Source: Alphaproteobacteria bacterium (GTDB lineage: Bacteria; Pseudomonadota; Alphaproteobacteria; UBA9219; RGZA01). From it: 64,000 nucleotides of DNA. Under the pieces are notes generated by a model that was not told the origin of the DNA, made no database searches, and was given only the letters and a program-made list of their open reading frames with translations. This document shows, piece after piece, positions 1 to 56,353 of the stretch; within the stretch, counting starts at the first letter, position 1, and every line of letters begins with the position of its first letter. The position numbers and the translations under genes are program-made. Where the stretch lies: assembly GCA_028278105.1 (NCBI GenBank), contig JANQEX010000077.1, positions 2,030 to 66,029 on the forward strand, in the 5' to 3' direction.

Positions 1-31
1 TAGGGTGTTGGGTGTTGGGGTGTTCGGGTAT

Positions 32-155
32 TAGGTTTAATGGACAATGACCAACACGAACATTCCCGCGCCCAGCTTCGCCTGCGGCACCGCCGAGGTC
101 TTGGCGCACCCGTCGCGCCGAAGCTTTGCGGAGGCGGACAAGCAGGGGCCGGGGT
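32..155. repeat. Partial MITE-A left arm fused to a REP2 palindromic element
   Basis: TAGGTTTAATGGACAATGACCAACACGAACATTCCCGC matches the left arm of the MITE-A copies at 3130, 11290 and 50070. The following ~85 bp (GCCCAGCTTCGCCTGCGGCACCGCCGAGG...GCGGAGGCGGACAAGCAGGGGCCGGGG) is the palindromic REP2 unit also seen at 11328, 42044-42465, 47196 and 50108. Confidence 0.6.
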
Positions 156-203: not shown

Positions 204-438
204 CTAGGTTCAATGGACAATTAAACTCAAGTCATTGAAAAGGCTAAATGAACATTCCGGGCAAGGTTGCGCAGCAACCGCGACCCGGAATCCAGTTTGT
301 TCCTGAAAATAAATGGGATTCCCGCTTCCCTGCTTCGCCTTCGGCTTCGCAGGGCGCACTTGCAAAAAGGCCCGGCGCAGCTTTAGCGTAGCCGGGTCGC
401 GGGAATGTTCGTGTTGGTAATTGTCCATTGAACCTAAG
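204..438. mobile_element. MITE-A copy (20-bp TIR CTAGGTTCAATGGACAATTA / TAATTGTCCATTGAACCTAG) with a REP3 palindrome inserted at the central hairpin apex
   Basis: Both terminal inverted repeats are present. The core is colinear with the 165-bp copy at 3130-3294 in reverse orientation. About 76 bp (TTCCCTGCTTCGCCTTCGGCTTCGCAGGGCGCACTTGCAAAAAGGCCCGGCGCAGCTTTAGCGTAGCCGGGTCGCGG) is inserted between GGGATTCCCGC and GGGAATGTTCG; the same unit occurs at 18782, 26227 and 42168. Confidence 0.75.
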
Positions 439-1564
439 GCTTGCAAAGAAAATCCTCAATTATATTCAGATAAATCCCGTGCAGCGCCTCCAGGTCGTCG
501 AGCGCGATATTTTCATCCACCTTGTGCGCGGTGGCGCCGGACGGCCCCAGCTCCAGCACGGGGCACAGCGCGCGGATAAAGCGGGCATCGGACGTGCCGC
601 CCGCCGTGCTCAGGACCGGCGCGCGGCCCGTCACCGCCTGGGCGGCCCGGCTGACGCGCGCGGCGAAGGCCGGGTCCTCGGTGACGAAAGGCTCGGTCCC
701 CGAATAAATTTTCAACTCGTGGCGCGCGCCGGATTCCCGGCACATCTTCTCCAGCCATTCCGAAAGGCCTTTGCCCGAATGGCGGTCGTTAAAGCGGATG
801 TTGACCCTGGCGGTGACCTTGGCGGGGATGACGTTATAGGCCGCGTTGCCGGTGTCGATTCCGGTCAGGACCAGGCGCGAAGGCTCGAAATGTTCCGTGC
901 CCCCGTCCAGCGGCGTGTCGTTCAGCCTTTGCAGCAGGGCCAGCATTTTCGGTACGGGATTGTCGGCAAGCTGGGGGTAGGCGCTGTGGCCTTGCGTGCC
1001 GTGCAGGGTGATGACGGCCGAGAGATTGCCCCGCCGGCCGTTCTTGATCGTCTCGCCCGCGAAGGAAGGGGCGGTGGGCTCGCCGACGATGCAATAGTCC
1101 GGTTTTTCGCCGCGTTCCTTCAGGACGCCGACCACCTTCGCCGTGCCGTCGATGGATTCGGCTTCCTCGTCGCCGGTGACAAGGTAGGAAAGCGAGCCGG
1201 ACGGGGCGGGGTTGTCTCTCAAAAAATCCACGCCCGCGCCGAGAAAGGCGGCCACCGCCGCTTTCATGTCCGAGGCGCCGCGGCCGTAAAGTTTTCCGCC
1301 GCGCAACGCGGGCTCGAAAGGCGGGCTGGTCCAGGCGGCCTCGTCGCCGGGCGGCACCACGTCCACATGCCCGGCGAAGCACAGATGCGGAGACCCTGTT
1401 CCGATGCGGGCGTAAAGATTTTCCACCACGCCGAAGCGCAGCCGCTCGATGCGAAACCCGTAAGGCTTGAGGAAATCCTCCACCACGCCCATCGCCCCGT
1501 CGTCGATGGGCGTCACGCTGCGGCAGGCGATCAGCGCCTGGGCAAGACGAAGAATTTCCGTCAT
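434..1564 (-). CDS. dapE: Succinyl-diaminopimelate desuccinylase (M20 peptidase family)
   Basis: 376-aa ORF with a DapE-like sequence throughout ([12 protein letters not shown], metal-binding His/Asp/Glu pattern, C-terminal dimerisation region). Adjacent to dapD, as usual. Confidence 0.85.
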
Positions 1565-2421
1565 GCCACCCCGGCCTCGCGCAGCAATTCGTTGATCGAG
1601 GTCTTGGCGCGCGTTTTGGCGTCCACCCGCTTGACGATCACGGCGCAGGAAAGGGCGGGGCCGGGCGCGCCGTCCTTCATGGGCTTGCCGGGCAGGGCGC
1701 CGGGAACCACCACCGCGCCGGCGGGTACGCGGCCGGTGAACACCTCGCCCGTCTCGCGGTCGATGATTTTGCTTGATGCGCCCAGGAACACGCCCATGGA
1801 AAGCACCGCGCCCTGTTCCACGATCATGCCTTCGGCCACTTCGGCGCGCGCGCCGATGAAGCAGCCGTCCTCGATAATCACGGGCGTTGCCTGCAAGGGC
1901 TCCAGCACGCCGCCGATGCCCGCGCCGCCGGAGACATGGACGTTCCTGCCGATCTGCGCGCAGGAGCCCACGGTGGCCCAGGTGTCGATCATCGTGCCTT
2001 CGTCGACGCGCGCGCCCACATTGACGAAACAGGGCATCAGCACCGCGTTTCCGGCGATATAGGCCGAATGGCGCACCACGCAGCCCGGCACGGCGCGGAA
2101 GCCCGCGCCGCGAAACTGCTCCTCGTCCCAGTACTGGAACTTGCTGGGAATCTTGTCGAACCAGTGCCCGCCGTTCGGCGCGCCGGAGATGCGCGCGCTC
2201 TCATGCAGGCGGAAGGACAGCAGGATGCCTTTCTTGATCCATTGATGGGTGACCCAGCCGGTTGCCGTCTTTTCGGCGATGCGCAAGACGCCGGCGTCCA
2301 GGTCGTTCATCAGTTGCAGGACGGCGCGGCGGTAATCGCTTTCGTCGCGCAGCGGCAGGGTTTCGCGGTTGTCCCAGGCGTGATCAATCAGGCTTTCCAG
2401 TCGGGATGTCTCGAAGCTCAT
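1561..2421 (-). CDS. dapD: 2,3,4,5-tetrahydropyridine-2,6-dicarboxylate N-succinyltransferase
   Basis: 286-aa ORF with hexapeptide-repeat left-handed beta-helix motifs ([23 protein letters not shown]...) and a DapD-type N-terminal domain. Overlaps the dapE start by 4 nt. Confidence 0.85.
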
Positions 2422-3098
2422 GCGGCTCTCTTGGTCAGGTTTTCCAGGAAAGGGATTAAATCATTGGTGGCGTAATGGCAATGCGGGTAATGATGCGCCG
2501 GAAGGGGCGTGGTTTTCTGCCAGGCCGCTTCGTGCCGCAGCCAGAGGGTTTTCATGCCCAGACGCGCCGCCGTTTCGAGATTACGCTCCATGTCGTCCAC
2601 CATGCAACAGGAGGCCGGGTCAAGCGCGTATTTGGCGATCAGGGCGCGGTAGGGGCCTTCATCGGGCTTGCAGACATAGTTTGCATCCTCAATGCCGAAA
2701 ATATCCGAAAAGCGGAAGGAGACGCCAAGGCGTTCCAGAATCCGCCTGGCATGTTTCCGGTCGGCATTGGTGAAGACGACTTTTTCGCCGGGCAGGGCGG
2801 CAAGGGCCGCTTCCAGACGCGGCGCGGGGCCGATGGCGGCCAGATCGACATCATGCACGAAATCCATGAATTCATGCGGGTCCACGCCGTGCTCCAGCAT
2901 CAGCCCGCGCATGGTGGTGCCGTGGGCGTGGAAATAGTGCTCGCGCAGCCGCTCGGCCTCTTCCCGCGCGACGCTGAAGGCCTGCGCAATATACGCCGCC
3001 ATGCGCCGGTGCATTTGCGGGAAAATCGCCGCATGCGGCGAGTAAAGCGTATTGTCCAGATCGAAAAGCCAGGTGGTGATGCGATGAAGCGGGGTCAT
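2418..3098 (-). CDS. HAD-superfamily hydrolase (pyrimidine 5'-nucleotidase-like)
   Basis: DLDNTLY HAD motif I lies near the N-terminus, with the later HAD motifs ([19 protein letters not shown]). The track ORF runs to 3146, but that would read into the MITE at 3130. The start was chosen at ATG 3098 ([19 protein letters not shown]). Confidence 0.7.
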
Positions 3099-3129
3099 GG
3101 CCAATGCCGGCGTAGCCGTCCAGTGTGCG

Positions 3130-3294
3130 CTAGGTTCAATGGACAATTACCAACACGAACATTCCCGCGAAAGCGGGAATCCCATTTATTTTCAAGAACA
3201 AACTGGATTCCGGGTCGCGGTTGCTGCGCAACCTTGCCCGGAATGTTCATTTAGTCTTTTCAATGACTTGAGTTTAATTGTCCATTGAACCTAG
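3130..3294. mobile_element. MITE-A, 165-bp reference copy without insert
   Basis: Perfect 20-bp TIRs CTAGGTTCAATGGACAATTA...TAATTGTCCATTGAACCTAG. Internal arms pair as a long hairpin (GAACATTCCCGCGAAAGCGGGAATCCC at the apex). The same unit recurs at 204, 11290, 20990, 50070 and 54396. Confidence 0.85.
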
Positions 3295-4268
3295 CGGGAA
3301 AAATGCTCGAACCATTTAATGATGCCAGCTTTATCCATGCTGTTCGAGAGCATCAGCATCAAGGCAAGCCGCGCCTGGCGGGCATTCAGCCATCCTGAGG
3401 GAATGAGGCCGCGTTCGATCAGGTCCGGCTCGCTGCCGGGGTAGGTGTAGCTGGCCTGGAAGGTCTCGCCCTGCCCCGCGCGGCTGCTGAAAAGCACCGG
3501 CATGCGGGCGGCCAAGGGTTCAAGTTGGGACAGAACCGCCATGGAAATATGACCGACACCGGTGCTGTTAAGGACAATGCCATCCATATCGTCGCGCGCG
3601 AAGGCCGCGATCAGGCCGGGCTCGAAATTCAGCCCGGTCTCGATGAGTGGAACCACCGGACGGCGCTTGCCGAGAGTCAGCCGTGGCGGAGTCAGGGCCG
3701 GTTGAAGAAACAGGCGCGCGCGATTTTCCGCAACCCATCCCAGCGGGCCGAGCGAAGCGAACGCGCTGGGCAGGAAGCTGTGCGCCTTCCGCACGAAAAG
3801 CGCGGAATGTATTTCATCATTCATCACCACAAGCACGCCCTTGCCGCGCGCGGCTGGCGCGGCGGCGGTCTTGCAGGCGGCAAGGATGTTGGCGGGGCCG
3901 TCCGCGCCCGGCAGGTCAGCCCGGCGCATCGCGCCGGTCAGCACGACGGGCTTTTCCGTTTCAAGAAGCAGCGCCAGGGCAAAAGCGGTTTCCTCCAGCG
4001 TGTCGGTGCCGTGGGTGATGACGATGCCGCCGGACTCCGCAAGGGCCTTGTTTATGGCCGCCACGAGCCGCGACAGATCATCCAGGGTCAGGCTGGCGCT
4101 TGGCTTGGCGAGGACCTCTCCCCCCGTTACATCCGCAACGCCGGCAAGGGAGGGAATGGATTCAAGCAGTCTCTCCACGCCAAGCGCCGGCATGCCGTCT
4201 TTTGCTCCGGCCTGTATGGCGATGGTGCCGCCGGTGGTCAGGATCGTGATTTTCGGCCTTGGGATCAT
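3291..4268 (-). CDS. L-asparaginase
   Basis: 325-aa ORF with the asparaginase N-terminal threonine motif (ILTTGGTIA) and HGTDTLEETAFAL. The stop codon TAG is supplied by the terminal CTAG of the MITE at 3291-3294. Confidence 0.8.
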   Translation of the reverse strand: MIPRPKITILTTGGTIAIQAGAKDGMPALGVERLLESIPSLAGVADVTGGEVLAKPSASLTLDDLSRLVAAINKALAESGGIVITHGTDTLEETAFALALLLETEKPVVLTGAMRRADLPGADGPANILAACKTAAAPAARGKGVLVVMNDEIHSALFVRKAHSFLPSAFASLGPLGWVAENRARLFLQPALTPPRLTLGKRRPVVPLIETGLNFEPGLIAAFARDDMDGIVLNSTGVGHISMAVLSQLEPLAARMPVLFSSRAGQGETFQASYTYPGSEPDLIERGLIPSGWLNARQARLALMLMLSNSMDKAGIIKWFEHFSR

Positions 4269-4283
4269 TTCCTGGTTCTTGTC

Positions 4284-5449: not shown

Positions 5450-5521
5450 ACTCCTTGATCCCCTCCCTTCCGCCTCCGCTCTGCAAGTTATGACGGGCGA
5501 GCTTCCTCACTCAGCGTCGGC

Positions 5522-9103: not shown

Positions 9104-10315
9104 ATGGCCTGTCCGTTTCTTACGCTTGATGATATTGATGTTTCGGAAAAGCGTGTGCTGCTCAGGGGCGACCTGAACACGCCGGTTGAAAACGGCGCGG
9201 TGACCGACACCACCCGCCTGCAAAGGCTTGCCAAAACCATACATGATCTGACCGCCCGCAACGCGAAGGTGATTGTCCTGTCCCATTTCGGCCGCCCGAA
9301 AAACGGGCCCGACCCTTCGGCCTCCCTCAAGGTCGTGGCCGAAGCCTTGCAGCGCGTCGTGGGCCGGAGCGTGGCTTTTTGTCCTGAGACCATCGGCCCG
9401 GCCGCCGCGGCCGCCGTGGAGGCCCTTCCGCCGGGGGGCGTTCTGGTCCTTGAGAACACCCGCTTCCACAAGGAGGAGGAGAAAAACGATCCCGAATTCG
9501 CCCGGCAACTCGCCGGCCTCGGCGATGTGTATGTGAACGACGCCTTTTCCGCTTCGCATCGCGCCCACGCCTCGACCGAGGGCCTGGCGCGCCTTCTGCC
9601 GGCCTGCGCCGGGCGCGACATGGAAGAAGAGCTTTCCACGCTTTCCAGGGCGCTTGACAATCCCGAAAAGCCGGTGATGGCCATCGTGGGCGGGTCAAAA
9701 ATCTCCACCAAGCTGGATGTGCTGAAAAACCTCACCAAAAAAGTGGATATCCTGGTGCTGGGCGGCGGCATGGCCAATACCTTTCTGGCGGCCAAAGGAT
9801 CGGGCGTGGGCAAATCGCTGTGCGAATTCGACATGCTGGATACCGCCCGCGTCATCATGGAGGCCGCGGAGCAAAATAACTGCCGCATCCTCCTGCCCGA
9901 AGACGTGGTGGTGGCGGAGAAGCTGGACGCGCATGCGTCCGCGCAAACGGTTTCGGCGCAGGCCATTCCCGAAACCATGATGGCTCTGGATGTGGGTCCG
10001 GCCACGCGGCGCGCGATCGCGGCGGCCATGGAAAACGCCAAAACGCTTGTCTGGAACGGGCCGCTGGGCGCGTTCGAGTTTCCGCCTTTCGACGAAAGCA
10101 CGGCGAGCCTTGCCAGGGTGATCGCCGCGCGCACGCGCATGGGCAAGCTTTTGTCGGTGGCGGGCGGCGGCGACACGGTCGCGGCGCTGAACGCCGCGGG
10201 CGTGACGGCCAAATTCAGCTATGTGTCGGCCGCCGGGGGCGCCTTCCTTGAATGGATGGAAGGGCGCGCCCTTCCCGGCGTCGAAATCCTGCGCCGCAAG
10301 AAGGCGGCGGCTTGA
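9104..10315 (+). CDS. pgk: Phosphoglycerate kinase
   Basis: 403-aa ORF with Pgk signatures (RGDLNTP, VLSHFGRP, GGGMANTFL, GGGD). Confidence 0.9.
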   Translation: MACPFLTLDDIDVSEKRVLLRGDLNTPVENGAVTDTTRLQRLAKTIHDLTARNAKVIVLSHFGRPKNGPDPSASLKVVAEALQRVVGRSVAFCPETIGPAAAAAVEALPPGGVLVLENTRFHKEEEKNDPEFARQLAGLGDVYVNDAFSASHRAHASTEGLARLLPACAGRDMEEELSTLSRALDNPEKPVMAIVGGSKISTKLDVLKNLTKKVDILVLGGGMANTFLAAKGSGVGKSLCEFDMLDTARVIMEAAEQNNCRILLPEDVVVAEKLDAHASAQTVSAQAIPETMMALDVGPATRRAIAAAMENAKTLVWNGPLGAFEFPPFDESTASLARVIAARTRMGKLLSVAGGGDTVAALNAAGVTAKFSYVSAAGGAFLEWMEGRALPGVEILRRKKAAA

Positions 10316-11292
10316 CGGCGGAGCGGCGGATCAACCTTGCCCTGCAAGGCGGCGGCGCGCACGGCGCCTTTACCTGGGGCGTGTTGCACGCCTTGCTGGA
10401 AGACCGGCGGGTATCCTTTCGCGCCATAAGCGGCGCCTCCGCCGGCGCGCTGAACGCGGCGGTGATGGCCACGGGCCTCCTCGAAAGCCGGGAGAAGGCC
10501 ATGCGCCTGCTGGAGGATTTCTGGCGCGGGATCAGCGCCGCCAGTCCTTTCGGCGCTTTGTCCGCCTCCCGCCCGCCGCAGGCGTTTGGTTTTCAGGAAG
10601 GCCGGACGGCGAAAGGCGTGATGCAGGGGCTGGAGGCGCTTTCGCAGTTGTTTTCGCCCGGTCCGCATCCTGCGTCCATCCGCAATCCCCTGCGGCCCAT
10701 CCTGGCCGGATTTGTCGATTTCGGGGGTTTGCGAAGCCGCCCGGTTCCGGCCCTTCACGTCGCGGCCACCGATGTGCGCAAGGGATGCGCGCGCATCTTC
10801 GGCAATGCCGGACTTTCGGTGGAGGCGCTTCTGGCGTCCGCCTGCCTGCCGCAGTTGTTTCCGGCGGTGGAGATCGACGGCGCGCATTACTGGGACGGCG
10901 GCTTCACCGCCAACCCGCCGCTGCTTCCGCTGGCGCAGGACCGGAATACGCCCGACATCCTGATCGTGCGGATTAACGCCCTGGCCACGGACACGCTGCC
11001 GCGAACGGGACCTGCCATCGCCGGACGCCTGGGCGCCATTTGCTTCAACGCGCCGCTTCTGGCCGAATGGCGCGGCCTGTCGGGCCGGCCGGACCTTTTC
11101 TTTCACGCCATCGCCGATGACGAGCTGATGGCCATGCTCCCGCCGGAAAGCAAGCTTACGCCCGGCTGGGATTTTCTTTTGCGCCTTCATGACGCGGGCT
11201 ACCGGCGCGGGCGCGTGTGGCTGGAAGAAAATTATGACTTCCTTGGACAGAGAAGCACCGTGCAGCCGGAGACGCTGCTGGACATGGATTAG
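10312..11292 (+). CDS. Patatin-like phospholipase
   Basis: GGGAHGAF oxyanion motif, GASAGA serine hydrolase motif and the catalytic Asp region (DGG). The chosen start is TTG at 10312, overlapping the pgk stop (in-frame upstream codons lie inside pgk). The stop TAG is provided by the MITE terminus at 11290. Confidence 0.75.
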   Translation: MTAERRINLALQGGGAHGAFTWGVLHALLEDRRVSFRAISGASAGALNAAVMATGLLESREKAMRLLEDFWRGISAASPFGALSASRPPQAFGFQEGRTAKGVMQGLEALSQLFSPGPHPASIRNPLRPILAGFVDFGGLRSRPVPALHVAATDVRKGCARIFGNAGLSVEALLASACLPQLFPAVEIDGAHYWDGGFTANPPLLPLAQDRNTPDILIVRINALATDTLPRTGPAIAGRLGAICFNAPLLAEWRGLSGRPDLFFHAIADDELMAMLPPESKLTPGWDFLLRLHDAGYRRGRVWLEENYDFLGQRSTVQPETLLDMD

Positions 11293-11542
11293 GTTCAATG
11301 GACAATTACCAACACGAACATTCCCGCCCCCGCCTGTCCGCCTCCGCAAGCTCCGGCGCGACGGGTGCGCCAAGACCTCGGCGGTGCCGCAGGCGAAGCC
11401 GGGCGCGGGGGCAGGCTCCGGCGGGAATCCCATTTATTTTCAGGAACAAATTGGATTCCGGGTCGTGGTTGCTGCGCAACCTTGCCCGGAATGTTCATTT
11501 AGTCTTTTCAATGACTCGAGTTTAATTGTCCATTGAACCTAG
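11290..11542. mobile_element. MITE-A copy with a REP2 element nested at the hairpin apex
   Basis: TIR TAGGTTCAATGGACAATTACC...GTTTAATTGTCCATTGAACCTAG. A ~96-bp REP2 palindrome (CCCCGCCTGTCCGCCTCCGCAAGCTCCGGCGCGACGGG...GCAGGCGAAGCCGGGCGCGGGGGCAGGCTCCGGCG) is inserted between CATTCCCGC and GGGAATCCC, the same site as in the copy at 50070. Confidence 0.8.
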
Positions 11543-18363: not shown

Positions 18364-19006
18364 GTCATCCTGAAAGCCGCGAAGCGGCTATTCAGGATCT
18401 CCTTGCCAATGAAGAAATTTGTCGTTTACATCATGACGAACAAAAAATATGGAACGCTTTATATTGGCGTTACGTCAAACTTGTCGCGGCGCTCTTTTGA
18501 ACACAAGAACGGCACGCTTGGCGGCTTTTGCAAAAAATACAATCTGGACAAACTTGTATATTACGAGATCTATGATGAAGCGGTTCCTGCAATAACGAGG
18601 GAAAAGAAACTCAAGTTATGGAAACGTGCATGGAAAATTGAGCTAATTGAAAGCATGAACCCGCAATGGAATGATCTGGTAAATCATTTGATTAATTGAT
18701 CGCACACGCTATGTATCACAAGATCCTGGATAAACCTCGCCGCCATGCGGCTCGGTTTTCCAGGATGACGTTTTTTATTTCTTGCCCACCGGAACCTTCC
18801 CCCGCGACCCGGCTTCGCTAAAGTGACGCCGGGCCGTTTTTCAAGCTCGTCCTGTGGAGCCGAAGGCGGTGCGGAATTCTGACAAACAGCGTCATCCTGG
18901 AAAACCGAGCCGCATGGCGGCGAGGTTTATCCAGGATCTCGTTGCATGTATTGCTTCACCGGTAAAGATATCCTGAACAGCCGCTTCGCGGCTTTCAGGA
19001 TGACGT
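18364..19006. repeat. AT-rich cassette bounded by inverted family-6 hairpin repeats (GTCATCCTG...CAGGATCTC), carrying a GIY-YIG gene plus inner palindromes
   Basis: Outer pair: 18364-18401 and its reverse complement 18968-19006. Inner pair: 18722-18770 and its exact reverse complement 18891-18940, flanking a REP3 copy (18782-18860). GC drops sharply across 18403-18720. Confidence 0.6.
18409..18699 (+). CDS. GIY-YIG nuclease family protein (COG2827-like, ~96 aa)
   Basis: KKFVVYIMTNKKYGTLYIGVTSNLSRRSFEHKNG carries the GIY...YIG...R...E core. Codon usage is AT-rich, unlike the neighbouring genes. The start was chosen at ATG 18409 (the track ORF begins at TTG 18403). Confidence 0.7.
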   Translation: MKKFVVYIMTNKKYGTLYIGVTSNLSRRSFEHKNGTLGGFCKKYNLDKLVYYEIYDEAVPAITREKKLKLWKRAWKIELIESMNPQWNDLVNHLIN

Positions 19007-20989: not shown

Positions 20990-21150
20990 CTAGGTTCAAT
21001 GGACAATGACCAACACGAACATTCCCGCCCCCGCTTGCGCGGGGGCAGGCTCCAGCGGGAATCCCATTTATTTTCAGGAGCAAATGGGATTCCGGGTCGC
21101 GGTTGCCGCGCAACCTTGCCCGGAATGTTCATCGGGTCTTTTCGATTTTT
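20990..21150. mobile_element. MITE-A, right-truncated copy with a short REP2 remnant at the apex
   Basis: The left TIR CTAGGTTCAATGGACAATGACC is intact, and the apex carries CCCCGCTTGCGCGGGGGCAGGCTCCAGCG. The right arm ends at GGAATGTTCATCGGGTC without the terminal TIR. Confidence 0.7.
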
Positions 21151-21151: not shown

Positions 21152-22516
21152 CTATGAGCCGGAATTCTCACGAAGCGCGGCATGCAGGGCCTTGCCAAGC
21201 CCTTCCAGCGGCAATTCTTTCTGCGCGCCGGTTTTCAGGTTTTTCAGCGCGGCAATGCCCGCCTCTTTCTCGCGGCGGCCCAGCACCAGAATATGGGGGA
21301 TGCCGCTGCGGTCGGCGTATTTGATCTGCCTGCCCAGCTTGTCGTCTTCCAGATAGAGCGCGGTATTGAGGCCCGCCGCGCGCAAGGACGTGGCGAGCTT
21401 GCGCGTTTCCGCCTCCAGGTCCGGCTCCATGCGGCAGACCAGGATTTTTGTCGGGCTGGCCGCCTCCTGCACGAGCCCGGCCTGGCGCATCTGGTCGAAC
21501 AGCCGCGTCGCGCCGATGGAGATGCCGACGCCCGGCAGTCTTGATTTCGTGTAGTGGCTGGCCAGATTGTCATACCGCCCGCCGGAGCAGACGCTGCCGA
21601 AGCCTTCATGGCCCGCGAGGAAGGTCTCGTACACCGTGCCGGTATAGTAATCCAGCCCGCGGGTGATGGCGGGGTTGAAGCGGATGACGCCGTCCGCACC
21701 CATGTCCGCCGTCATGCGCAGCAGCAGGCTGATTTCCCTCAGGCCTTCTTCCGCCAGGGCGTTGCCCGCGCAAAGCTTTTGCAGTTCCCGCGCCAGTACG
21801 TCGTTATCCGCATCGCGGATTTTTAGAACGCCAAGCAGCGCCCGTGCGGGACCGGCCGGAAGGCCGAGGGCAAGAATGTTCTTTTCCGCCGAATCCCAGC
21901 CGGTTTTGGCGGCCTTGTCGATTTCGCGCAGGGCCAGGGTTTTGGTGTTTTCGTCCGCGCCCAGCTTTTCAAGATAGCCTTTCAGGATTTTCCGGTTCGA
22001 GACATGGATGGTGAAAGCGCCCAGGGACAGCTCGCGGAAAATATCGGCGATCACCACGGGCGCTTCGGCGTCATAGGCGGGAGAAAGCGCGTCCTTGCCG
22101 ATAATGTCGATATCGCACTGGTAGAATTCGCGGAAACGGCCTTTCTGCGCCCGCTCGCCGCGATAGACGCGCTGGATCTGGTAGCGGCGGAAGGGAAAGG
22201 CCAGTTCGTGCTCGTGTTGCGCCACGTAGCGGGCCAGCGGCACGGTCAGGTCGAAGCGCAGCGCGAGGCCGGGCTCATGCCCCTGGGCGCGGCCGCCGGT
22301 GGACTGCGCGAAATAAACCTGCTTCTCCGTCTCGCCGCCGCTTTTGGTGAGGAGGATGTCCGCCTCCTCGAACACGGGCGTTTCGATGGCGGTGAAGCCG
22401 TGCCGCTCGTAGCTGGCGCGGATCGCGTCCAGCATTGCCTGGAATGCGGCCTGCGCGCGCGGCAGAAGCTCCAGCGTGCCCGCGGGCGTCTTGGGCGTGA
22501 TGATTTTCGTGGTCAT
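21152..22516 (-). CDS. hisS: Histidine--tRNA ligase
   Basis: 454-aa ORF with class II aaRS motifs, the HisRS-specific GGRYD, and a C-terminal anticodon-binding domain. The anticodon-binding domain argues against the paralogue HisZ. Confidence 0.8.
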   Translation of the reverse strand: MTTKIITPKTPAGTLELLPRAQAAFQAMLDAIRASYERHGFTAIETPVFEEADILLTKSGGETEKQVYFAQSTGGRAQGHEPGLALRFDLTVPLARYVAQHEHELAFPFRRYQIQRVYRGERAQKGRFREFYQCDIDIIGKDALSPAYDAEAPVVIADIFRELSLGAFTIHVSNRKILKGYLEKLGADENTKTLALREIDKAAKTGWDSAEKNILALGLPAGPARALLGVLKIRDADNDVLARELQKLCAGNALAEEGLREISLLLRMTADMGADGVIRFNPAITRGLDYYTGTVYETFLAGHEGFGSVCSGGRYDNLASHYTKSRLPGVGISIGATRLFDQMRQAGLVQEAASPTKILVCRMEPDLEAETRKLATSLRAAGLNTALYLEDDKLGRQIKYADRSGIPHILVLGRREKEAGIAALKNLKTGAQKELPLEGLGKALHAALRENSGS

Positions 22517-26226: not shown

Positions 26227-26545
26227 AAACGTCCTGCCCGCGACCCGTCTTCGCTAAAGCTATGCCGGGCCGTTTTGCAAGCGCGCCCTGCGAAGCCGAA
26301 GGCGAAGCAGGGAGGCGGGCATCCACAGCTTGCGGAGGCGGAAAAGCGGGCGCCGGGGTAAACTCCAGCCGGGGTCCGGCATGAAGCCGGAGGCTTCATG
26401 CAACCGCCTCCGGCGGTTGCTGGATTCCGGCTTTCGCCGGAATGAGAAGTTGTCTGTCTGGTTTGATCCGTTCCCAATCAAGTTTGGACCTAAACAAACG
26501 GGATTCCGGGTCGCGCGAGCTTCGCTCGCTTGCCCGGAATGTTCA
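26227..26545. repeat. REP3 palindrome plus a degenerate MITE-A fragment
   Basis: 26227-26330 CGCGACCCGTCTTCGCTAAAGCTATGCCGGGCCGTTTTGCAAGCGCGCCCTGCGAAGCCGAAGGCGAAGCAGGGAGGCGGG is a REP3 unit. 26490-26545 AAACGGGATTCCGGGTCGCG...GCCCGGAATGTTCAT is a MITE-A core arm. Confidence 0.6.
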
Positions 26546-26552
26546 TTCAAGC

Positions 26553-27560
26553 TCAATCATAATCCAGGTCGCCCGCCTTGCCGTGAAAGATTCTGTAGGC
26601 AAGGAAGGTATAGCCGATCAGCACCGGCAGGACGATCAGTGTGCCCACCAGGATAATCATCAGGGAGTCCGGAGCGCTGGCCGCCTCCACAATCGTCATG
26701 CGGCCGGGCACGATATAGGGATAGAAGCTGTAGGCGAGTCCAAGGAAGCACAGGACATAAATCCCGATGGTCAGCATGAAGGGAACCCAGCATCCCCGGT
26801 CATCCGCGCGCGGCTGGGTTTTGAGCGAGCGGTGTAGCAGGTAGACAAGGCCCATGGTCAGCAGCGGGATGGGCGCGAGAAACAAGAAGTTGGGCAAGGC
26901 GAACCATTTGTCGAAGATGCGCGCGCTGACAAGCGGCGTGGCCGCCGACACCAGCAGGATGCCGCCGGCCGTGCCGTAAAGCGCGAGCCGCGCCCAGCGC
27001 GCCGCCTTGCGTTGCAGCGCGCCTTCGGTTTTCATCAGCAGCCAGCAGGCGCCGATCAGCGTATAGCCCGCCGCGAGGCACAGGCCCACGAGCCCCGAAA
27101 AGCAGCAGGCGCTCCAGCTCTGCTCAAAGCCGAGAATGTAGGAACCAAGCATGTATCCCTGCGCCAGCGCCATCAGCAGGGAGCCCGCGAAGAAGGTGAA
27201 ATTCCACGTCTCCTTGTGCGCGATATGCGCCTTGGTGCGGAAGTCAAACGACACGCCGCGCATGATCAGTCCCGCCAGCATCACCGCCACCGGCAGGTAG
27301 AGATTGGTCAATATGATGCCGTGCGCGGCGGGAAAGGCCACCAGCAGCAACCCCACGCCCAGCACCAGCCAGGTTTCGTTGGCGTCCCAGAAAGGGCCGA
27401 TGGAGGCGATCATCCGGTCCTTTTCCTCGCCGGTGGCGCCGTTCAGCAAAAGGCCCACGCCCAGGTCATAGCCGTCCAGCGCGGCATAGACCAGCATCGC
27501 AAGGCCCATCAGGCCGGCGAAGACCAGGGGCAGCCATTGTCCGTCCGCGAAGATTTCCAT
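26553..27560 (-). CDS. cydB: Cytochrome bd ubiquinol oxidase subunit II
   Basis: 335-aa polytopic membrane ORF immediately downstream of cydA. Its N-terminus (DGYDLGVGLL) is typical of CydB. Confidence 0.85.
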   Translation of the reverse strand: MEIFADGQWLPLVFAGLMGLAMLVYAALDGYDLGVGLLLNGATGEEKDRMIASIGPFWDANETWLVLGVGLLLVAFPAAHGIILTNLYLPVAVMLAGLIMRGVSFDFRTKAHIAHKETWNFTFFAGSLLMALAQGYMLGSYILGFEQSWSACCFSGLVGLCLAAGYTLIGACWLLMKTEGALQRKAARWARLALYGTAGGILLVSAATPLVSARIFDKWFALPNFLFLAPIPLLTMGLVYLLHRSLKTQPRADDRGCWVPFMLTIGIYVLCFLGLAYSFYPYIVPGRMTIVEAASAPDSLMIILVGTLIVLPVLIGYTFLAYRIFHGKAGDLDYD

Positions 27561-47681: not shown

Positions 47682-47978
47682 GTGGGCGCTTGCCGGGCCA
47701 TCGCCGTTATGGGCGTCATCGCAGGAATCGCGACTCTAACTGTTGCCGCTGCCGCAAGCGCACCGCCGGTAACGGGCGGGCTGAAGGACGAGACTCTTGT
47801 CCCTGAAAAAGCAATTACGCAGAACGAACGCGCGAAGCCGCCGCCGCCCTGTCCCAAGGTGATCGGCACGGAGCCGGTGGACATGTCGCGCTGCCGGCAT
47901 CGCGTCGTGACCGGTGCGGCAAGGCCCAAGCCCTATCCCGTCATCCCCGCCCTTTTCCCTACGCCGGGTAAGCCATGA
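47682..47978 (+). CDS. Small hypothetical secreted protein, translationally coupled to the downstream repeat protein
   Basis: RBS GGGGGAG seven nt upstream of GTG 47682. Signal-peptide-like N-terminus (AIAVMGVIAGIATLTVAAAASA). The stop overlaps the downstream ATG (ATGA). Confidence 0.45.
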   Translation: MGACRAIAVMGVIAGIATLTVAAAASAPPVTGGLKDETLVPEKAITQNERAKPPPPCPKVIGTEPVDMSRCRHRVVTGAARPKPYPVIPALFPTPGKP

Positions 47979-49711
47979 CGGGCCGGTTTGCCTTCCTTGC
48001 CGTCTTTTACGCCGCGCTGCTGGCAGGCTCCCCGCTTTATGCCGGCTGCGTGAACCCGCCGGGCGTGAACGGGGAGGCGATTTATAACGCGGATCACAAC
48101 GTCATGCAGTTCTGTGACGGCGCAAGCTGGATCAGCATGGCGGCTTCCGGTTCGGCCACCGAGGTGGACCCCAAGGTGGGCACGCTGGAAAACGGCAAAT
48201 GGTGTTCATCCAATGGTGTCATCATCACCTGCACCGAGGATGCGCCCGTCAGCGGCGCGGGCGGCTCCAGCGGGCAGGTGCAGTATAACACCGGCACCGG
48301 GCTTGGTGGTGCCGTGGCCGTCACCTATGCCACCTCCGGTGATCTGCTGATGCTTATATCGCAGGCGGCCACCGACATTCCCCTGGTGATAAAGGGCGCG
48401 GCGGACCAGACGGGGAATCTTCTGGAAATACGGGACTCCGATGACACGCCGCTGGTCACGGTCTCTTTTGCGGGCGTAATCGGCGGCTCCGGCGCATCGC
48501 TCACCAGCCTGAACGCCGATAGCCTCGCCAACGGCACAATCCCCGACGCGCGGTTTCCGGCCACGCTTCCCGCATCTTCGGGCGCGAACCTCACCGCCTT
48601 GAACGCCGGCAACATCTCCAGCGGCACGGTGGCCACGGCGCGGCTGGGTTCGGGAACGGCCAACAGTTCCACTTATCTGCGCGGGGACGGCGCCTGGACA
48701 AGCGTGAGCGCGGGCACGACCCTGCCCGATTGCGCGGACGGGCAAATCGTCGTGCGCCTGGACGGCGGATGGGTGTGCAAGAATCAGTTCACATGGGTCT
48801 GCTCCGTCACATGGACGCAGCGCACCGGCGCGGGCAGCCGGATCTGGTTCGACATCGCCAGCAGCAGCGACGGCGCCAAACTGGCGGCGGTGGTCCGCGG
48901 CGGCTATATCTACACCAGCAGCGACGGCGGCGCGACCTGGACGGCGCGCACCAGTGCGGGCAGCTGGGAGTGGATCGCCATCGCCAGCAGCAGCGACGGC
49001 GTCAAGCTGGCGGCGGTGAACGACTCCGACGACTATATTTACACCAGCAGCGACTCCGGCGCGACCTGGACGGCGCGCACCAGTGCGGGCAGCCGGAGGT
49101 GGAGCGGCATCGCCAGCAGCAGCGACGGCGTCAAGCTGGCGGCGGGAGTCTACGGCGGCTATATCTACACCAGCGATGACTTCGGAATGACCTGGACGGA
49201 ACAGACTGCCGCGGGCAGCCGGGAGTGGCTCTACATCGCCAGCAGCAGCGACGGCAGCAAGCTGGCGGCGGCGACAGCCAGAAGCTTCGGCTATATCTAC
49301 ACCAGTAGCGACAGCGGTGCGACCTGGACGGCGCGCACCGGCGCAGGCAGCCGGAGGTGGAAGGCCATCGCCAGCAGCAGCGACGGCGTCAAGCTGGCGG
49401 CGGGGGTCTACAACGGCTATATCTACACCAGCAGCGACAGCGGCGCGACCTGGACGGAGCAGGCCGGCGCGGGCAGCCGGGTCTGGTACCGCATCGCCAG
49501 CAGCAGCGACGGCAGCAAGCTGGCGGCGACCGGCGTCGGCGGTTATATCTACACCAGCAGCGACAGCGGCGCGACCTGGACGGAGCAGTCCGGCGCGGGC
49601 AGCCGGACCTGGTACCGCATCGCCAGCAGCAGCGACGGCAGCAAGCTGGCGGCGGCTGTCTACAACGGCTATATTTACACCGGCGCCACAACTTGCGATT
49701 TTTTTGAGTGA
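47975..49711 (+). CDS. Secreted mosaic protein: phage-tail-fibre-like repeats plus eight BNR/Asp-box-like beta-propeller blades
   Basis: Signal peptide MTGRFAFLAVFYAALLAGSPLYAG. The central region (SLNADSLANGTIPDARFPATLPASSGANLTALNAGNISSGTVATARLGSGTANSSTYLRGDGAWTSV) resembles phage tail fibre repeats. It is followed by eight ~40-aa repeats IASSSDG.KLAA....GYIYTSSDSGATWT..T.AGSR.W containing S-x-D-x-G-x-T-W boxes. Confidence 0.65.
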   Translation: MTGRFAFLAVFYAALLAGSPLYAGCVNPPGVNGEAIYNADHNVMQFCDGASWISMAASGSATEVDPKVGTLENGKWCSSNGVIITCTEDAPVSGAGGSSGQVQYNTGTGLGGAVAVTYATSGDLLMLISQAATDIPLVIKGAADQTGNLLEIRDSDDTPLVTVSFAGVIGGSGASLTSLNADSLANGTIPDARFPATLPASSGANLTALNAGNISSGTVATARLGSGTANSSTYLRGDGAWTSVSAGTTLPDCADGQIVVRLDGGWVCKNQFTWVCSVTWTQRTGAGSRIWFDIASSSDGAKLAAVVRGGYIYTSSDGGATWTARTSAGSWEWIAIASSSDGVKLAAVNDSDDYIYTSSDSGATWTARTSAGSRRWSGIASSSDGVKLAAGVYGGYIYTSDDFGMTWTEQTAAGSREWLYIASSSDGSKLAAATARSFGYIYTSSDSGATWTARTGAGSRRWKAIASSSDGVKLAAGVYNGYIYTSSDSGATWTEQAGAGSRVWYRIASSSDGSKLAATGVGGYIYTSSDSGATWTEQSGAGSRTWYRIASSSDGSKLAAAVYNGYIYTGATTCDFFE

Positions 49712-50069: not shown

Positions 50070-50323
50070 CTAGGTTCGATGGACAATTACCAAGACGAAC
50101 ATTCCCGCCCCCGCCTGTCCGCCTCCGCAAGCTTCGGCGCGACGGGTACGCCAAAACCTCGGCGTAGCCGCAGGCGAAGCCGGGCGCGGGGGCAGGCTCC
50201 AGCGGGAATCCCATTTGTTTTCAAGAACAAATTGGATTCCGGGTCGCGGTTGCTGCGCAACCTTGCCCGGAATGTTCATCTCGTCTTTTCAATGACTTGA
50301 GTTTAATTGTCCATTGAACCTAG
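50070..50323. mobile_element. MITE-A copy with a REP2 element nested at the apex
   Basis: TIRs CTAGGTTCGATGGACAATTACC...GTTTAATTGTCCATTGAACCTAG. The REP2 insert (about 50108-50205) sits between CATTCCCGC and GGGAATCCC, exactly as in the copy at 11290. Confidence 0.8.
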
Positions 50324-50403: not shown

Positions 50404-51561
50404 TCAAAGCCCGGAAACGGCCAGAACTTCCGCCGCCGGGTTTTGGGCGCGGAAACCCGCCGTCATCTCGGCATGATGCGCGCCGCCATTCAAAAGGATC
50501 AGGGCCGGTTTGCCTTCCATCACAGCCGGCGCAAAAACCTGCATCCGTGTGCCGTAAAGCCGCCGGCCCTGCTTGACGAGGCTGTTGTCCAGCAGTCCCT
50601 TGATCTTTGATTGATCCAGGCCGAAGGTGAACAGATATTGCGAATAGATGCTGGCCGGAGCGACATAGACCGGCGCTTCGCTTTGCGTAACCCGCCGGTT
50701 CAGCGCTTCAACCTTGCGCTGGAAGGTGGCGAAATATTCCCGCACGAGATGAAGAGTGGCGTCCCCGCCGCCCGCAAAGGGCGTGGCGCTTTCGAATGCC
50801 CCGTCCCGCTCGAACGCCAGGAAAACCGAATGGCCGGCGCCATGGGCTTCACGCGCGGCAAGCCGGAAACCGTGCTGCCGGAACAAAACAACCAGATTAT
50901 CGACCGGGCAATAAAAACTGTGTTCCCAGTTGACCGCGCCCGGTTCGCCGCGCGCCAGCCATTTCGCCAGATCGGGCCAGGCCACAAGCACCCGTCCGCC
51001 CCGCGGCAGACGCTGGCCCAGCAGGTTTACGATTTCGCGCGGCTTATACATGTGTTCCAGCGAATGGCAGAAAACCAGGGTGCGCACGCCTTCGGGCAGG
51101 CTGAAACTTTCATCAAAAAAGCCGCGCGCCAGCTTTAAGTTGGGGATCGGATCGCCGCTGATCAGCGGATTCGGCTCCAGAATATGCCAAACGGGCTCGG
51201 CATTGCTGGCGCGGAACGCGCGCGCAAGACGTCCGCCGCCGCCACCGACTTCCAGAACATCCGCCACCCGGTTCGCCGCGACGAATCCGGCAAAGGCGGC
51301 ATTGTGCGCATCCCACGCCTTGCCGAGGCCGGTGGCGTGCCCGCCCTGATACACGATTTCCAGCGGCACAAGCTCCGCCAACTGGGCGGCGCCGCATGTT
51401 TCGCACGCCTCCCAACGCATGGGAAAGGCCAGGTCTTCCGATGCGGGCGTATCCACGCATCCCTGGAACAGGGGCATGGGCGGCGTGGCGAAGGCCGGGA
51501 CAAGCTTTGTCCCGTGGCACAACATACAGCGCGCGCGGGGAATGAGTTCTGGCGGCATCAT
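50404..51561 (-). CDS. Class I SAM-dependent methyltransferase with an N-terminal zinc-ribbon (sugar C-methyltransferase-like)
   Basis: N-terminal CxxC...CxxC (CMLCHG...CETCG), SAM-binding motif VLEVGGGGG, and a C-terminal methyltransferase domain typical of NDP-sugar C-methyltransferases. Confidence 0.6.
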   Translation of the reverse strand: MMPPELIPRARCMLCHGTKLVPAFATPPMPLFQGCVDTPASEDLAFPMRWEACETCGAAQLAELVPLEIVYQGGHATGLGKAWDAHNAAFAGFVAANRVADVLEVGGGGGRLARAFRASNAEPVWHILEPNPLISGDPIPNLKLARGFFDESFSLPEGVRTLVFCHSLEHMYKPREIVNLLGQRLPRGGRVLVAWPDLAKWLARGEPGAVNWEHSFYCPVDNLVVLFRQHGFRLAAREAHGAGHSVFLAFERDGAFESATPFAGGGDATLHLVREYFATFQRKVEALNRRVTQSEAPVYVAPASIYSQYLFTFGLDQSKIKGLLDNSLVKQGRRLYGTRMQVFAPAVMEGKPALILLNGGAHHAEMTAGFRAQNPAAEVLAVSGL

Positions 51562-52433: not shown

Positions 52434-54353
52434 TCATCCCTTCCGGGCCGGTTTCCCCGTCCCACCGCAATCGACTTTCAGCGCCTTCACGGTTGCGTCG
52501 AAATAGTCCTGCGGCAAGTTGATGTGCCAAACATAACGATCATCGGCCATCTGCGCGATGGGCTGGGTCGGCACCGGCACAAAGCCGGGGCGCGTGCGTT
52601 TCTCCAGCAGCACGGCCCGGTCCGGGCAGGCCTCGCGCGCCACCGCCTGCGGGAAATTCACCTCTTCATGATAGCGGGCCGAGGGCCAGATGAAGGTGAA
52701 AATCACCGCACCATGCGTGAGGACCAGAAAAGCCAGCAGCGCCGGGCCAAAGAGCACCAGCTTTTTCATGCGCCCGCCCAGGCGCCGCGCGGCAAGGTCC
52801 AGCAGCAGCAGCACCGCGACCATGCCCATGATGTTCAGCCCGTAGTAATAACGGTCGGGGAAACTGGTGCCGTAATGACCAAGAAAAGCCGACAGGCCGC
52901 GCCGCTGGACGGCCACGCCCAGAATGTAAACCGCAAAGCCGCTCCAGGCGCACCAGACCGGAAGCAGGTCGTCAAGCTTGCATGCGCGCAAACGCCAGTA
53001 AAGCCATGCGGCGGCGGCGGCAAATAATAGCGCCAGCTCCACCACCAGCGTGTCGTTCAGCAGACGGTAAACCGGCGCGATGATCGGAAACAACAGCATG
53101 CGCGCCAGCACGAACTCGATCATCGCCTCGCGCTTGACCTCAAGGCCGCCCGCTCCTCCGGCAAAAGTGAACATGTCGGACGGCATCAGCAAGAAGGTTC
53201 CGCCCATCAGCAGCAACGCCGCCACGGGAACGCCCCATAAAAAAGCCTTGCGCGTTCCGCGCTGCCGCCGCCAAAGCCACAGGGCGTAAAACGCCGCGTA
53301 AACCGGCACAAGGCCGAAGGTGACCGGAAAGGTCAGCATGCAAATGAAGAACACGGCAAGGCAAGCGGCCTGAAGGCGCAGATCCTCCGGCTTCATCAGG
53401 GCGCGGATCATGACGACCAGCGCGATGACCGGAAACAGATAGGCCAGGTTCAGGATCCGCCCCAGCACCTCGTTATTCTCGCCGCCCATGGGCATCAGCA
53501 GCAGGAAGCCCCACAGGGAAAGCCGGGTCAGAAGATGAAAGCGCTTGCGGAAAAGCGCAAAAGGCAGCAGCGCCACGCCCGCCATGAAGGCCCAGGAGAC
53601 GCAGGCGTAAATCTGCGGCAGATAAACCAGCGACTTGCCGAAAAACAGCCCGTTCAGGCCAAGGCCGATGAAATGAAGGATGGAGGAGCCCAAAACGGGA
53701 AAGCCCTGCCGCGCGTGAAGGCCCGTTTCCCATACGCCTTTTTCCAGAAGCTTGCCGGTCCAGGGGCCGTCCTCGCCGTAAAGGATGGGAAAAACGAAAG
53801 GATCGGCATTGCGCAGCACCAGCAACGCCACGCCAAGAATGAACAGCGCCGCCATGAACAGCCGGGGCCGGCTATCGTCCAGCCGCTTGAGGGCGCGATA
53901 CCAATTGCGCAGGAACGCGCCGCGCAGCACCAGCCTTTCGCTTGTCAGCCGCGCCACCAGAAAGTTCAGGGCCAACGTGAAGGGCGTAACGATGATCTTG
54001 GCGGCAACGGCGGCGGCGGCGGGATTCAGAAAGGGCAGCATCAGGGGTTGCAACGCGCCGATGGCGGCCGAAGCGGCGATAATCGCCGCCAGGGAATAAA
54101 CAATGTAAAAGGCTATTTTCCTGGTCAGCGCCGTTTCGTTTTTGCGGAAGATGCGCTCATGCGCCACGATGAAGGCAAAGGTCATGCCCACGCAGCCGCT
54201 GACCAGATTGGCGACGAAGGGAGAAAATCCCGTCCACGACACCAGAGCCGTGAACACGGCCATGTCCAGCAGCCATCCCAGCCCCGACGCCGCCGCGAAA
54301 GGCAGAAAGGTTCTGGGCGGAAGAATTTTGAAAACCCGTGCGAGAGGATTCAT
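52434..54353 (-). CDS. GtrA-domain fused to a large polytopic membrane protein (putative GT-C-type glycan transferase)
   Basis: The N-terminal ~140 aa form four TM helices with the GtrA-family pattern (FAAASGLGWLLDMAVF...GMTFAFIVAHERIF...AKIIVTPFTLALNFLVAR). About 500 further aa contain more than 10 TM helices. Confidence 0.55.
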   Translation of the reverse strand: MNPLARVFKILPPRTFLPFAAASGLGWLLDMAVFTALVSWTGFSPFVANLVSGCVGMTFAFIVAHERIFRKNETALTRKIAFYIVYSLAAIIAASAAIGALQPLMLPFLNPAAAAVAAKIIVTPFTLALNFLVARLTSERLVLRGAFLRNWYRALKRLDDSRPRLFMAALFILGVALLVLRNADPFVFPILYGEDGPWTGKLLEKGVWETGLHARQGFPVLGSSILHFIGLGLNGLFFGKSLVYLPQIYACVSWAFMAGVALLPFALFRKRFHLLTRLSLWGFLLLMPMGGENNEVLGRILNLAYLFPVIALVVMIRALMKPEDLRLQAACLAVFFICMLTFPVTFGLVPVYAAFYALWLWRRQRGTRKAFLWGVPVAALLLMGGTFLLMPSDMFTFAGGAGGLEVKREAMIEFVLARMLLFPIIAPVYRLLNDTLVVELALLFAAAAAWLYWRLRACKLDDLLPVWCAWSGFAVYILGVAVQRRGLSAFLGHYGTSFPDRYYYGLNIMGMVAVLLLLDLAARRLGGRMKKLVLFGPALLAFLVLTHGAVIFTFIWPSARYHEEVNFPQAVAREACPDRAVLLEKRTRPGFVPVPTQPIAQMADDRYVWHINLPQDYFDATVKALKVDCGGTGKPARKG

Positions 54354-54395: not shown

Positions 54396-54518
54396 CTAGG
54401 GCCAATAGACAATTACCAACATGAACATTCCCGCGAAAGCGGGAATCCCATTTATCTTCAAAAACAAACGGGATTCCGCAGGCGCGGCTGCTTCACAACC
54501 TTACCCGGAATGTTCATT
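54396..54518. mobile_element. MITE-A, degenerate right-truncated copy
   Basis: CTAGGGCCAATAGACAATTACCAACATGAACATTCCCGCGAAAGCGGGAATCCCATTTATCTTC...GGAATGTTCATTAATGG lacks the right TIR. Confidence 0.65.
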
Positions 54519-56215: not shown

Positions 56216-56295
56216 AACGGCAGGCCGGAGCCTGCCGTCTCATTTTGTGAACAACGTCTTGTTAACGGTAAGACGCCGTTTTCTAATCAGCTGTT
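56216..56295 (-). ncRNA. Predicted tracrRNA of the type II-C system
   Basis: The minus strand at 56272-56292 is a perfect 21-nt complement of the crRNA repeat segment GACGCCGUUUUCUAAUCAGCU, extendable with a bulge. Downstream on the minus strand lie the hairpin AACAAGACGTTGTT and the terminator GACGGCAGGCTCCGGCCTGCCGT-TTTTTGTTT. The upstream promoter is TTGACG-N18-TAAAAT (56300-56329). Confidence 0.7.
56217..56238 (-). terminator. Rho-independent terminator hairpin (tracrRNA 3' end)
   Basis: ACGGCAGGC-CGGA-GCCTGCCGT stem-loop followed on the minus strand by UUUUUGUUU. Also U-rich on the plus side. Confidence 0.7.
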
Positions 56296-56299
56296 GCGA

Positions 56300-56329
56300 A
56301 TTTTAGCCGGCCGGGCTTATCGTCGTCAA
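56300..56329 (-). promoter_or_regulatory. Predicted sigma70 promoter of tracrRNA (minus strand -35 TTGACG, 18-bp spacer, -10 TAAAAT)
   Basis: Reverse complement of 56324-56329 is TTGACG and of 56300-56305 is TAAAAT. The hexamers are the same as in the repeat-embedded promoters of the array. Confidence 0.5.
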
Positions 56330-56353
56330 GGCAATTTAATAGGGGGACAAGCA

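Follow-up and report, generated by a model that had tools for sequence, protein, structure and literature searches.

Bacterial MITEs are small elements, generally under ~600 bp in length. Among those described, RUP of the pneumococcus is a MITE thought to be mobilised by IS630-Spn1, and the pair uses a TA target (PMC2229807). The IS427 group of IS5 is common in the Alphaproteobacteria (PMC2266754, PMC3281130); IS711 duplicates the TA of YTAR, has 20-bp inverted repeats and prefers palindromic repeats as targets, its palindromic insertion sites being the Bru-RS sequences (PMC2266754), and the IS427-group elements of Paracoccus are associated with 2-bp direct repeats (PMC3281130). In Neisseria, the palindromic dRS3 repeat is 20 bp long with the consensus ATTCCCN8GGGAAT (PMC1797815), and an IS110-type recombinase has been proposed to act on it. 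Here we describe MITE-A, a family of short repeats found throughout a 64-kb stretch of bacterial DNA (the whole of which we refer to as the window), and conclude, with a probability of roughly 0.8, that it is a non-autonomous cut-and-paste DNA transposon of an uncultured alphaproteobacterium.

The 20-nt end of the element, CTAGGTTCAATGGACAATTA, occurs 11 times in the 64-kb window, counting both strands and allowing up to three mismatches, compared with 0.00 occurrences expected from dinucleotide-preserving shuffles, and the terminal repeat proposed in the initial annotation is thus real. Facing pairs of these ends delimit four complete copies, at 204-437, 3130-3294, 11289-11542 and 50070-50323, each with 20-nt ends carrying 0-1 mismatch that form 18-20-bp terminal inverted repeats (TIRs). 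An nhmmer search with the 165-bp copy as query also recovers 20990-21147, 54397-54531, 26489-26554 and 32-70, bringing the total to eight loci in 64 kb: four complete copies, three that are right-truncated, and one fragment comprising only an internal hairpin. The truncated copies (20990-21146, 54396-54518 and 31-73) retain the left end and lack the right, which is not so for 26489-26554, where hairpin 2 stands alone. At least eight copies had been claimed at the outset, in both orientations and always intergenic. Our count agrees with the first of these statements; the second holds, but 204-437 is the sole copy of the eight in the opposite orientation; and the third holds except that, at several ends, a flanking gene has the terminal TAG as its own stop codon. 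The coordinates first assigned are also right overall, with corrections of one base at 204-437 (previously ending at 438) and 11289-11542 (previously starting at 11290).

The minimal complete copy, of 165 bp, is at 3130..3294 on the forward strand, with the TA and left TIR at 3130-3149, hairpin 1 at 3161-3180, a T-rich spacer at 3181-3206, hairpin 2 at 3207-3246, and the right TIR and TA at 3275-3294. Its left end is 30 nt upstream of the ATG (3099) of a pyrimidine 5'-nucleotidase gene, and at its right end the CTA at 3291-3293 is the TAG stop of an asparaginase gene, 3291..4268(-). The inverted copy at 204..437(-) is 234 bp long, with a 73-nt module, C (326-398), nested in the loop of hairpin 1, and dapE, 434..1564(-), takes its TAG stop from the CTA at 434-436. 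The two remaining complete copies are both 254 bp in length and on the forward strand. That at 11289..11542 has a 93-nt module, B (11328-11420), in the hairpin 1 loop, and follows a patatin-like gene, 10252..11292(+), whose stop is the TAG at 11290-11292; a convergent Peripla_BP gene ends at 11555. That at 50070..50323 has the same architecture, with its B module at 50109-50201, and is located between a BNR-repeat gene, 47975..49711(+), and a convergent methyltransferase gene, 50404..51561(-).

The incomplete copies are all on the forward strand. The copy at 20990..21146 has the left TIR, hairpin 1 with a short B-type loop, and hairpin 2, lacks the right TIR, and abuts the stop of hisS, 21152..22516(-). 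The copy at 54396..54518 is more diverged (~86%); its left end is 42 nt upstream of the start of a GtrA-like gene, 52434..54353(-), and it ends at the TAA stop (54517-54519) of an open reading frame at 54517..55920(-). At 31..73 there is only a left TIR with 3 mismatches and the 5' arm of hairpin 1, followed by an inverted B module at 65-155 and then possibly a degenerate right end extending to ~203. The solitary hairpin 2 at 26489..26554 has no TIRs and abuts the stop of cydB, 26553..27560(-). A fifth complete copy lies outside the window. A search of 185,579 GTDB species genomes for the exact TIR pattern gave 16 matches, 15 of which are single matches attributable to chance and one of which is real, at 1949-2113 of the MAG contig JANQMY010000021.1 ('Alphaproteobacteria bacterium PL25b_bin.64'; hereafter L004), 97% identical to 3130-3294.

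Comparison of the five complete copies defines the unit, which reads GGTTCAATGGACAATTA...TAATTGTCCATTGAACC. Each consists of 39 nt, a variable insert and 122 nt, such that a 161-bp core is invariant in length and 94.4-98.1% identical among them, and the size classes of 165, 234 and 254 bp differ solely by the presence of 4, 73 or 93 nt in the loop of hairpin 1. This hairpin has the form ATTCCCGC-loop-GCGGGAAT, with an 8-bp stem and a GAAA loop in the 165-bp form; hairpin 2 (ATTCCGGG..CCCGGAAT) has a stem of ~16 bp. Although the interior was initially described as a nearly perfect extended palindrome, the predicted fold of the 165-bp form is instead a 20-bp terminal stem closing a multiloop from which two separate hairpins (3161-3180 and 3207-3246) emerge. 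The predicted fold is very stable, with z ~ -9 as RNA and as DNA and on both strands. The two hairpins share a conserved base, ATTCC(C/G)G...C(C/G)GGAAT, topped by an exchangeable tip; in the solo hairpin 2 (26499-26548) the basal stem is kept and the tip is a different perfect palindrome, which gives three compensatory pairs.

The element is non-coding and the open reading frames within it are artefacts, as first suggested, since the inserts of 4, 73 and 93 nt shift the frame and there are essentially no protein relatives. The peptides from two reading frames of the 165-bp copy were used in protein searches. The first finds only spurious open reading frames of 60 aa (P0121 and P0122) in two other NCBI contigs (24 and 78 kb), which imply at least one more copy with another loop variant. 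The second has no match in an indexed protein search, and an exhaustive search yields a zinc-finger false positive (P0123) and a repeat open reading frame derived from hairpin 1 (P0124). No Rfam family matches the element at either the gathering or a relaxed threshold, the best being FtrB, which scores 19 bits where the gathering score is 66, and two tRNAs alone reach threshold in an Rfam scan of the whole window.

The contents of the hairpin 1 loop vary, and consist of GAAA in the 165-bp copy, the 73-nt C module in 204-437, the 93-nt B module in both 254-bp copies, and, in 20990-21146, a B module that is shortened. The two modules belong to independent families of GC-rich intergenic repeats of ~90-95 nt, B running CCCGCC...GGCGGG and C running CCCGCGACCCG...GGGAAGCGGG, and solo examples are located in an array downstream of lolA (42050-42476) and at 47198-47292, 26237-26360, 18801-18889 and 49976-50064. 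There are no ATTCCC...GGGAAT units in the solo array. The same 254-bp architecture is found at two unrelated positions, 11289-11542 and 50070-50323, and the form carrying B was therefore propagated as one unit; the size variants would then have arisen when GC-rich B and C modules came to occupy the hairpin 1 loop, with the 254-bp B form subsequently moving whole.

A different view of this modularity is that the short GC-rich palindromes, hairpins 1 and 2, are the real units, spread and reshuffled by a RAYT (Y1 transposase) or an IS110-type recombinase in the manner of a REP/BIME- or NIME-like mosaic, and that the 165-bp unit is simply a frequent arrangement of them. We regard this as unlikely, even though hairpin 1 (3161-3180) matches the dRS3 consensus (PMC1797815) and its 23-mer CATTCCCGCGAAAGCGGGAATCC (3160-3182) has exact matches in Azospirillum, Sphingobium, Sphingopyxis and Novosphingobium, at 15 places in Photobacterium and, as the dRS3 repeat, at no fewer than 40 places in N. 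gonorrhoeae, a cross-taxon spread far beyond chance for a 23-mer. Hairpin 1 also underlies the spurious repeat open reading frame found elsewhere (P0124), a solitary hairpin 2 with an exchanged palindromic tip is present at 26489-26554, B and C are found both solo and nested, and a hairpin-spacer-hairpin relative without TIRs is present at 29007-29100. However, the sequences on either side of the loop (39 nt on the left, 122 nt on the right), including the TIRs and non-palindromic stretches, are conserved as one block of invariant length that is sharply bounded at TA, which is not predicted by REP/BIME spread. There is no RAYT or IS110-type gene in the window, and the B and C modules, taken alone as candidate strong palindromes, fold no better than shuffled sequences (z -0.7 to -1.8). 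A mosaic of this type may account for the nested inserts, but not for dispersal of the whole unit, which is better explained by transposition of a TIR-bounded element. An origin in the Neisseriales, suggested by the dRS3-like hairpin, was considered and rejected, the host being alphaproteobacterial and related to Azospirillaceae.

The window contains several other repeats and low-GC features. The 29007-29100 segment, located between the divergent genes cydA and a phosphoribosyltransferase gene, consists of a GC hairpin, TCCCATTTGATTTCCAAAATAAAATGGGA and a second GC hairpin, an arrangement resembling the MITE-A interior. A small low-GC GIY-YIG nuclease gene (18403..18699) is situated within nested long inverted repeats in the region 18346-19022 (18346-18418 with 18950-19022, and 18718-18776 with 18884-18942); the building block of these repeats is 'GGCGTCATCCTGGAAA...TTTATCCAGGATCT', which is found again as tandem 138-bp units at 24751-25026, within the region 24663-25042, and the structure may represent a separate mobile unit. 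Short intergenic repeats of reiterated (A/C)AGGGTC(A/T) are present at 5361-5409, 33182-33214, 40325-40373, 46174-46222 and 49850-49900, and a separate palindromic family, 'CCCCTCCC/GGGAGGGG', at 47290-47385, 49724-49757 and 49930-49985. The BNR/Asp-box repeat protein gene (47975..49711) has tandem 126-129-bp repeats (at least 6 units, 61-80% identical) at 48733-49782. GC-rich repeats extend or create long open reading frames at 41336-42511 (-), 2418-3146 (-) and 49708-50073 (+), which are annotation traps, and the 'LolA' open reading frame, for example, is lengthened by 228 aa at its N-terminus where it runs across the B/C array. A low-GC CRISPR-Cas locus of type II-C-like organisation (56294-61894; GC 0.49-0.53 vs 0.62) includes cas9 (56294..59500, with RuvC_III, HNH_4 and Cas9_a matches), cas1 (59512..60420) and cas2 (60417..60755), and an array at 60826-61785 with 15 identical 36-nt repeats, ATTATAGCTGATTAGAAAACGGCGTCAAACCGCAAC, and 30-nt spacers, abutting tRNA-Arg (61818-61894). 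None of the spacers matches the window, and hence none targets the element.

The ends of all copies conform to Y-TA-GGTTC...GAACC-TA-R. Only the outermost base varies; in the canonical orientation it is G at the right end and either C or T at the left, and the bases immediately inside the TA are invariantly G...C. Two copies, 204-437 and 11289-11542, read TTAG...CTAG, which fits a 2-bp TA duplication better than a 4-bp duplication, since the latter would require the same mutation to have happened twice. This arrangement is consistent with TA duplication at a YTAR or CTAG target, a reading formally inseparable from a TIR that simply includes the TA, as the TA lies inside palindromic ends. The motif CTGGRCTCAWT, considered as a possible older variant of the TIR, occurs no more often than expected by chance and was set aside.

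There is a close relationship between the element ends and the stop codons of neighbouring genes. At five of the ten termini of the five complete copies, the TA together with the G of the element is the stop codon of the adjacent gene, which argues that the TA was present prior to insertion. The window genes stopping in a terminal TAG are dapE, the asparaginase gene and the patatin-like gene; for the first two the family profile matches reach to within a few residues of the C-terminus, and the patatin orthologue in a syntenic relative (L026) aligns to within four codons of the stop, such that all three proteins are of normal length. The copy in L004 is positioned exactly between two convergent open reading frames, 693..1952(+) and 2110..2655(-), neither of which has a Pfam match, and both of their stops are formed by its termini. 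Removal of the element and one TA from L004 leaves a single CTAG with overlapping stops, and this locus would therefore be the simplest evidence for both a duplicated TA and silent insertion into a stop codon, as reconstructed from the occupied site rather than seen at an empty one. CTAG is depleted in the window, with 18 occurrences observed compared to ~40 expected from a second-order model, and 8 of the 18 are element ends; at least three of the other ten are stop codons, and only two are inside coding sequence. Over the whole window, CTAG sites other than MITE ends are mostly at stop codons and in spacers.

The flanks of the different loci are unrelated and similarity ends sharply at the TA. 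The genes alongside are ordinary chromosomal ones (dapE, dapD, argB-like, yidC, pgk, htpG, argG, folD, hisS, cydAB, ileS, ftsK and others). It had been recognised from the beginning that extended similarity beyond the ends would point to segmental duplication, and none is found apart from a single case of ~20 nt to the right of 204-437 (as its reverse complement) and of 50070-50323. This shared stretch is the one observation in favour of the copies having arisen by segmental duplication or gene conversion of an intergenic block without any transposition. It resembles degenerate element ends, with a motif that is not above chance, and has the appearance of older, degenerate copies lying next to the elements; the flanks are otherwise unrelated, with similarity stopping exactly at TA, and the copies adjoin unrelated housekeeping genes. 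Duplication of this kind thus appears to be largely refuted by the sharp boundaries, and we consider it highly improbable.

Comparison with relatives is also informative. In L026, a distant relative whose HisS is 72% identical, the gene order is conserved and the convergent patatin/Peripla_BP pair is 10 bp apart, whereas the corresponding gap in the window is 262 bp, 254 bp of which is the element. An nhmmer search finds no element in either of the syntenic relatives L026 and L027. The HisS protein has no match above 74% identity elsewhere in the database, and its closest named relatives, at ~59%, are from Azospirillum; on this protein evidence the host is an alphaproteobacterium related to Azospirillaceae. 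Exact-protein look-ups for other strains return the same strain only, in Logan run SRR20820740, whose contigs match the window at 100% identity and are interrupted within the element, as a multicopy repeat would be expected to cause.

All eight copies in the window and the L004 copy adjoin at least one gene 3' end, and there is an enrichment between convergent genes: on our approximate gene map, 4 of ~9 convergent junctions contain a copy compared with 2-3 of ~38 other junctions (Fisher p ~0.01-0.02). This distribution is what might be expected if MITE-A were primarily a functional RNA or DNA structure, either a bidirectional intrinsic terminator or an mRNA-stabilising 3' structure, kept by selection and mobile only secondarily, and there are precedents in SPRITE and REPs (PMC3184786). 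In addition to the very stable fold (z ~ -9), CCCATTTATTTT follows hairpin 1 on one strand and AATCCAGTTTGTTCTTG follows the reverse complement of hairpin 2 on the other, and a consensus terminator scan scores hairpin 1 as terminator-like on both strands. Terminator-like matches are more numerous than in shuffles in 46000-56000 (24 vs 13.0 +/- 3.8) but not in 1-12000 (18 vs 16.4 +/- 5.1), which contains three complete copies; the U-tracts are not continuous and are separated from the stem by 3 nt; and none of the Rfam families matches. The 3'-end bias is equally well explained by targeting of CTAG and stop codons together with selection against other sites, and because neither the TIRs nor the TA ends are accounted for by a terminator, such a role could only be an added one. 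We therefore think it very unlikely that selection for such a structure, rather than transposition, is what maintains the family, and any terminator role of MITE-A would be an inferred one.

We can also speculate that the two themes are combined, with MITE-A acting as a mobile, orientation-independent 3'-end cassette that homes to CTAG stops, including overlapping convergent stops, and regenerates TAG on both sides. Its hairpins and T-rich tracts would terminate or stabilise transcripts in both directions, and its dRS3-type hairpins would act as docking sites for module-swapping recombination, a NIME-like behaviour outside Neisseria. This is a doubtful proposition, offered as a conjecture.

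Searches for further copies and for an autonomous partner help to define the distribution of the family. The exact TIR pattern has seven matches in the JGI metagenomes, all attributable to chance and none real, and no match among viral contigs, and blastn of the element against 72,556 plasmids finds no TIR match, only the 23-nt hairpin 1. No transposase was found among the ~45 window genes scanned with Pfam or NCBIfam, and no autonomous element with ends GGTTCAATGGACAAT...ATTGTCCATTGAACC was found in the window, the GTDB species genomes, the JGI metagenomes, the viral contigs or the plasmids. A search for a full-length partner with the same TIRs had been proposed at the outset as a check, and none, whether of the IS630 or the IS5/IS427 type, was found in the window or the collections searched. 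Neither the TIR string nor the hairpin string led to anything relevant in a search of the literature. The family is new, in that its ends are not matched in the literature, it corresponds to none of the Rfam families and it is absent from other sequenced species, although the kind of element is well known.

Taken together, these features agree with the initial interpretation of the repeats as MITEs, which is supported by their size, TIRs, absence of coding capacity, unrelated flanks, core identity and TA ends, and by the gap seen in comparison with L026. MITE-A has the characteristics of a MITE in being 165-254 bp long, non-coding, bounded by TIRs and present at multiple unrelated loci with sharp boundaries and an inferred target-site duplication; a cognate autonomous IS with matching TIRs is absent from the collections searched. 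Recent activity, first suggested from the density of copies, is a possibility. A plausible mechanism is that a DDE transposase acting in trans, not encoded in the window, binds the terminal repeats and directs insertion at the TA of a YTAR target, mostly CTAG, with duplication of the TA. As the element starts with G, a TAG or TAA stop codon interrupted at its TA would be restored as TAG. Given the depletion of CTAG, and that stop codons make up several of the sites not belonging to the element, copies would be expected to build up without harm at the 3' ends of genes, with a preference for spacers between convergent genes.

As to the mobilising family, IS630/Tc1-mariner and the IS427 group of IS5 would fit equally well, since TA duplication at NTAN/CTAG (IS630) and at YTAR with 13-21-bp inverted repeats (IS427) both agree with the ends and do not discriminate between them. 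The earlier suggestion of an IS630-like partner is thus plausible, given the TA/CTAG ends, but has no privileged status, as the IS5/IS427 group fits too.

Recognition of the MITE-A family explains several spurious open reading frames, breaks in short-read assemblies, and the unusually long spacers of some convergent genes. It provides a clean example of a TA/CTAG-specific element in a GC-rich, CTAG-depleted genome being channelled onto stop codons that it regenerates, and likewise of a MITE as a carrier of other palindromic repeat modules. It opens no new question, and would surprise specialists only if a terminator or module-swapping role were demonstrated.

Several patterns emerge from comparison of MITE-A with known systems. 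First, the SPRITE and REP elements are biased to convergent gene ends, but differ from MITE-A, which has long TIRs, TA ends and weak terminator features. Secondly, the Correia elements (CREE/NEMIS) of Neisseria are similar in being ~105-155 bp in length and TIR-bounded, with a high copy number, an RNA stem-loop, locations near genes, and size variants (PMC2229807, PMC1797815); their sequence is unrelated, however, their TIRs are of another length, and their size variants are internal deletions rather than nested foreign modules. Thirdly, the dRS3 repeats and NIMEs of Neisseria share with MITE-A both the hairpin, in that hairpin 1 (ATTCCCGCGAAAGCGGGAAT) fits the dRS3 consensus and the exact variant is present in gonococcal chromosomes, and the association with modules of 73-93 nt. 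In NIMEs, complete dRS3 units flank RS elements in arrays, whereas in MITE-A the modules are inside the split palindrome of a TIR-bounded element; the MITE-A host is, unlike that of NIMEs, alphaproteobacterial, and the window contains no dRS3-specific recombinase or phage. Fourthly, IS711 and the IS427 group resemble MITE-A in using the TA of YTAR, in their ~20-bp inverted repeats, in the 2-bp direct repeats of the IS427 group, and in occurring in the same class of hosts (PMC2266754, PMC3281130). They are autonomous, ~830-870 bp in length and encode a transposase, whereas MITE-A encodes nothing, and no similarity of its TIRs to any plasmid-borne IS was detected by blastn against the plasmids. 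Finally, RUP is like MITE-A in being ~100-170 bp long and non-coding, with TIRs, insertion at TA, many intergenic copies and an end-to-end stem-loop (PMC2229807). It differs in having a known partner with matching TIRs and a Gram-positive host, and the sequences are dissimilar; neither nested GC-rich modules nor a coincidence with stop codons is reported for RUP, whereas MITE-A has both.
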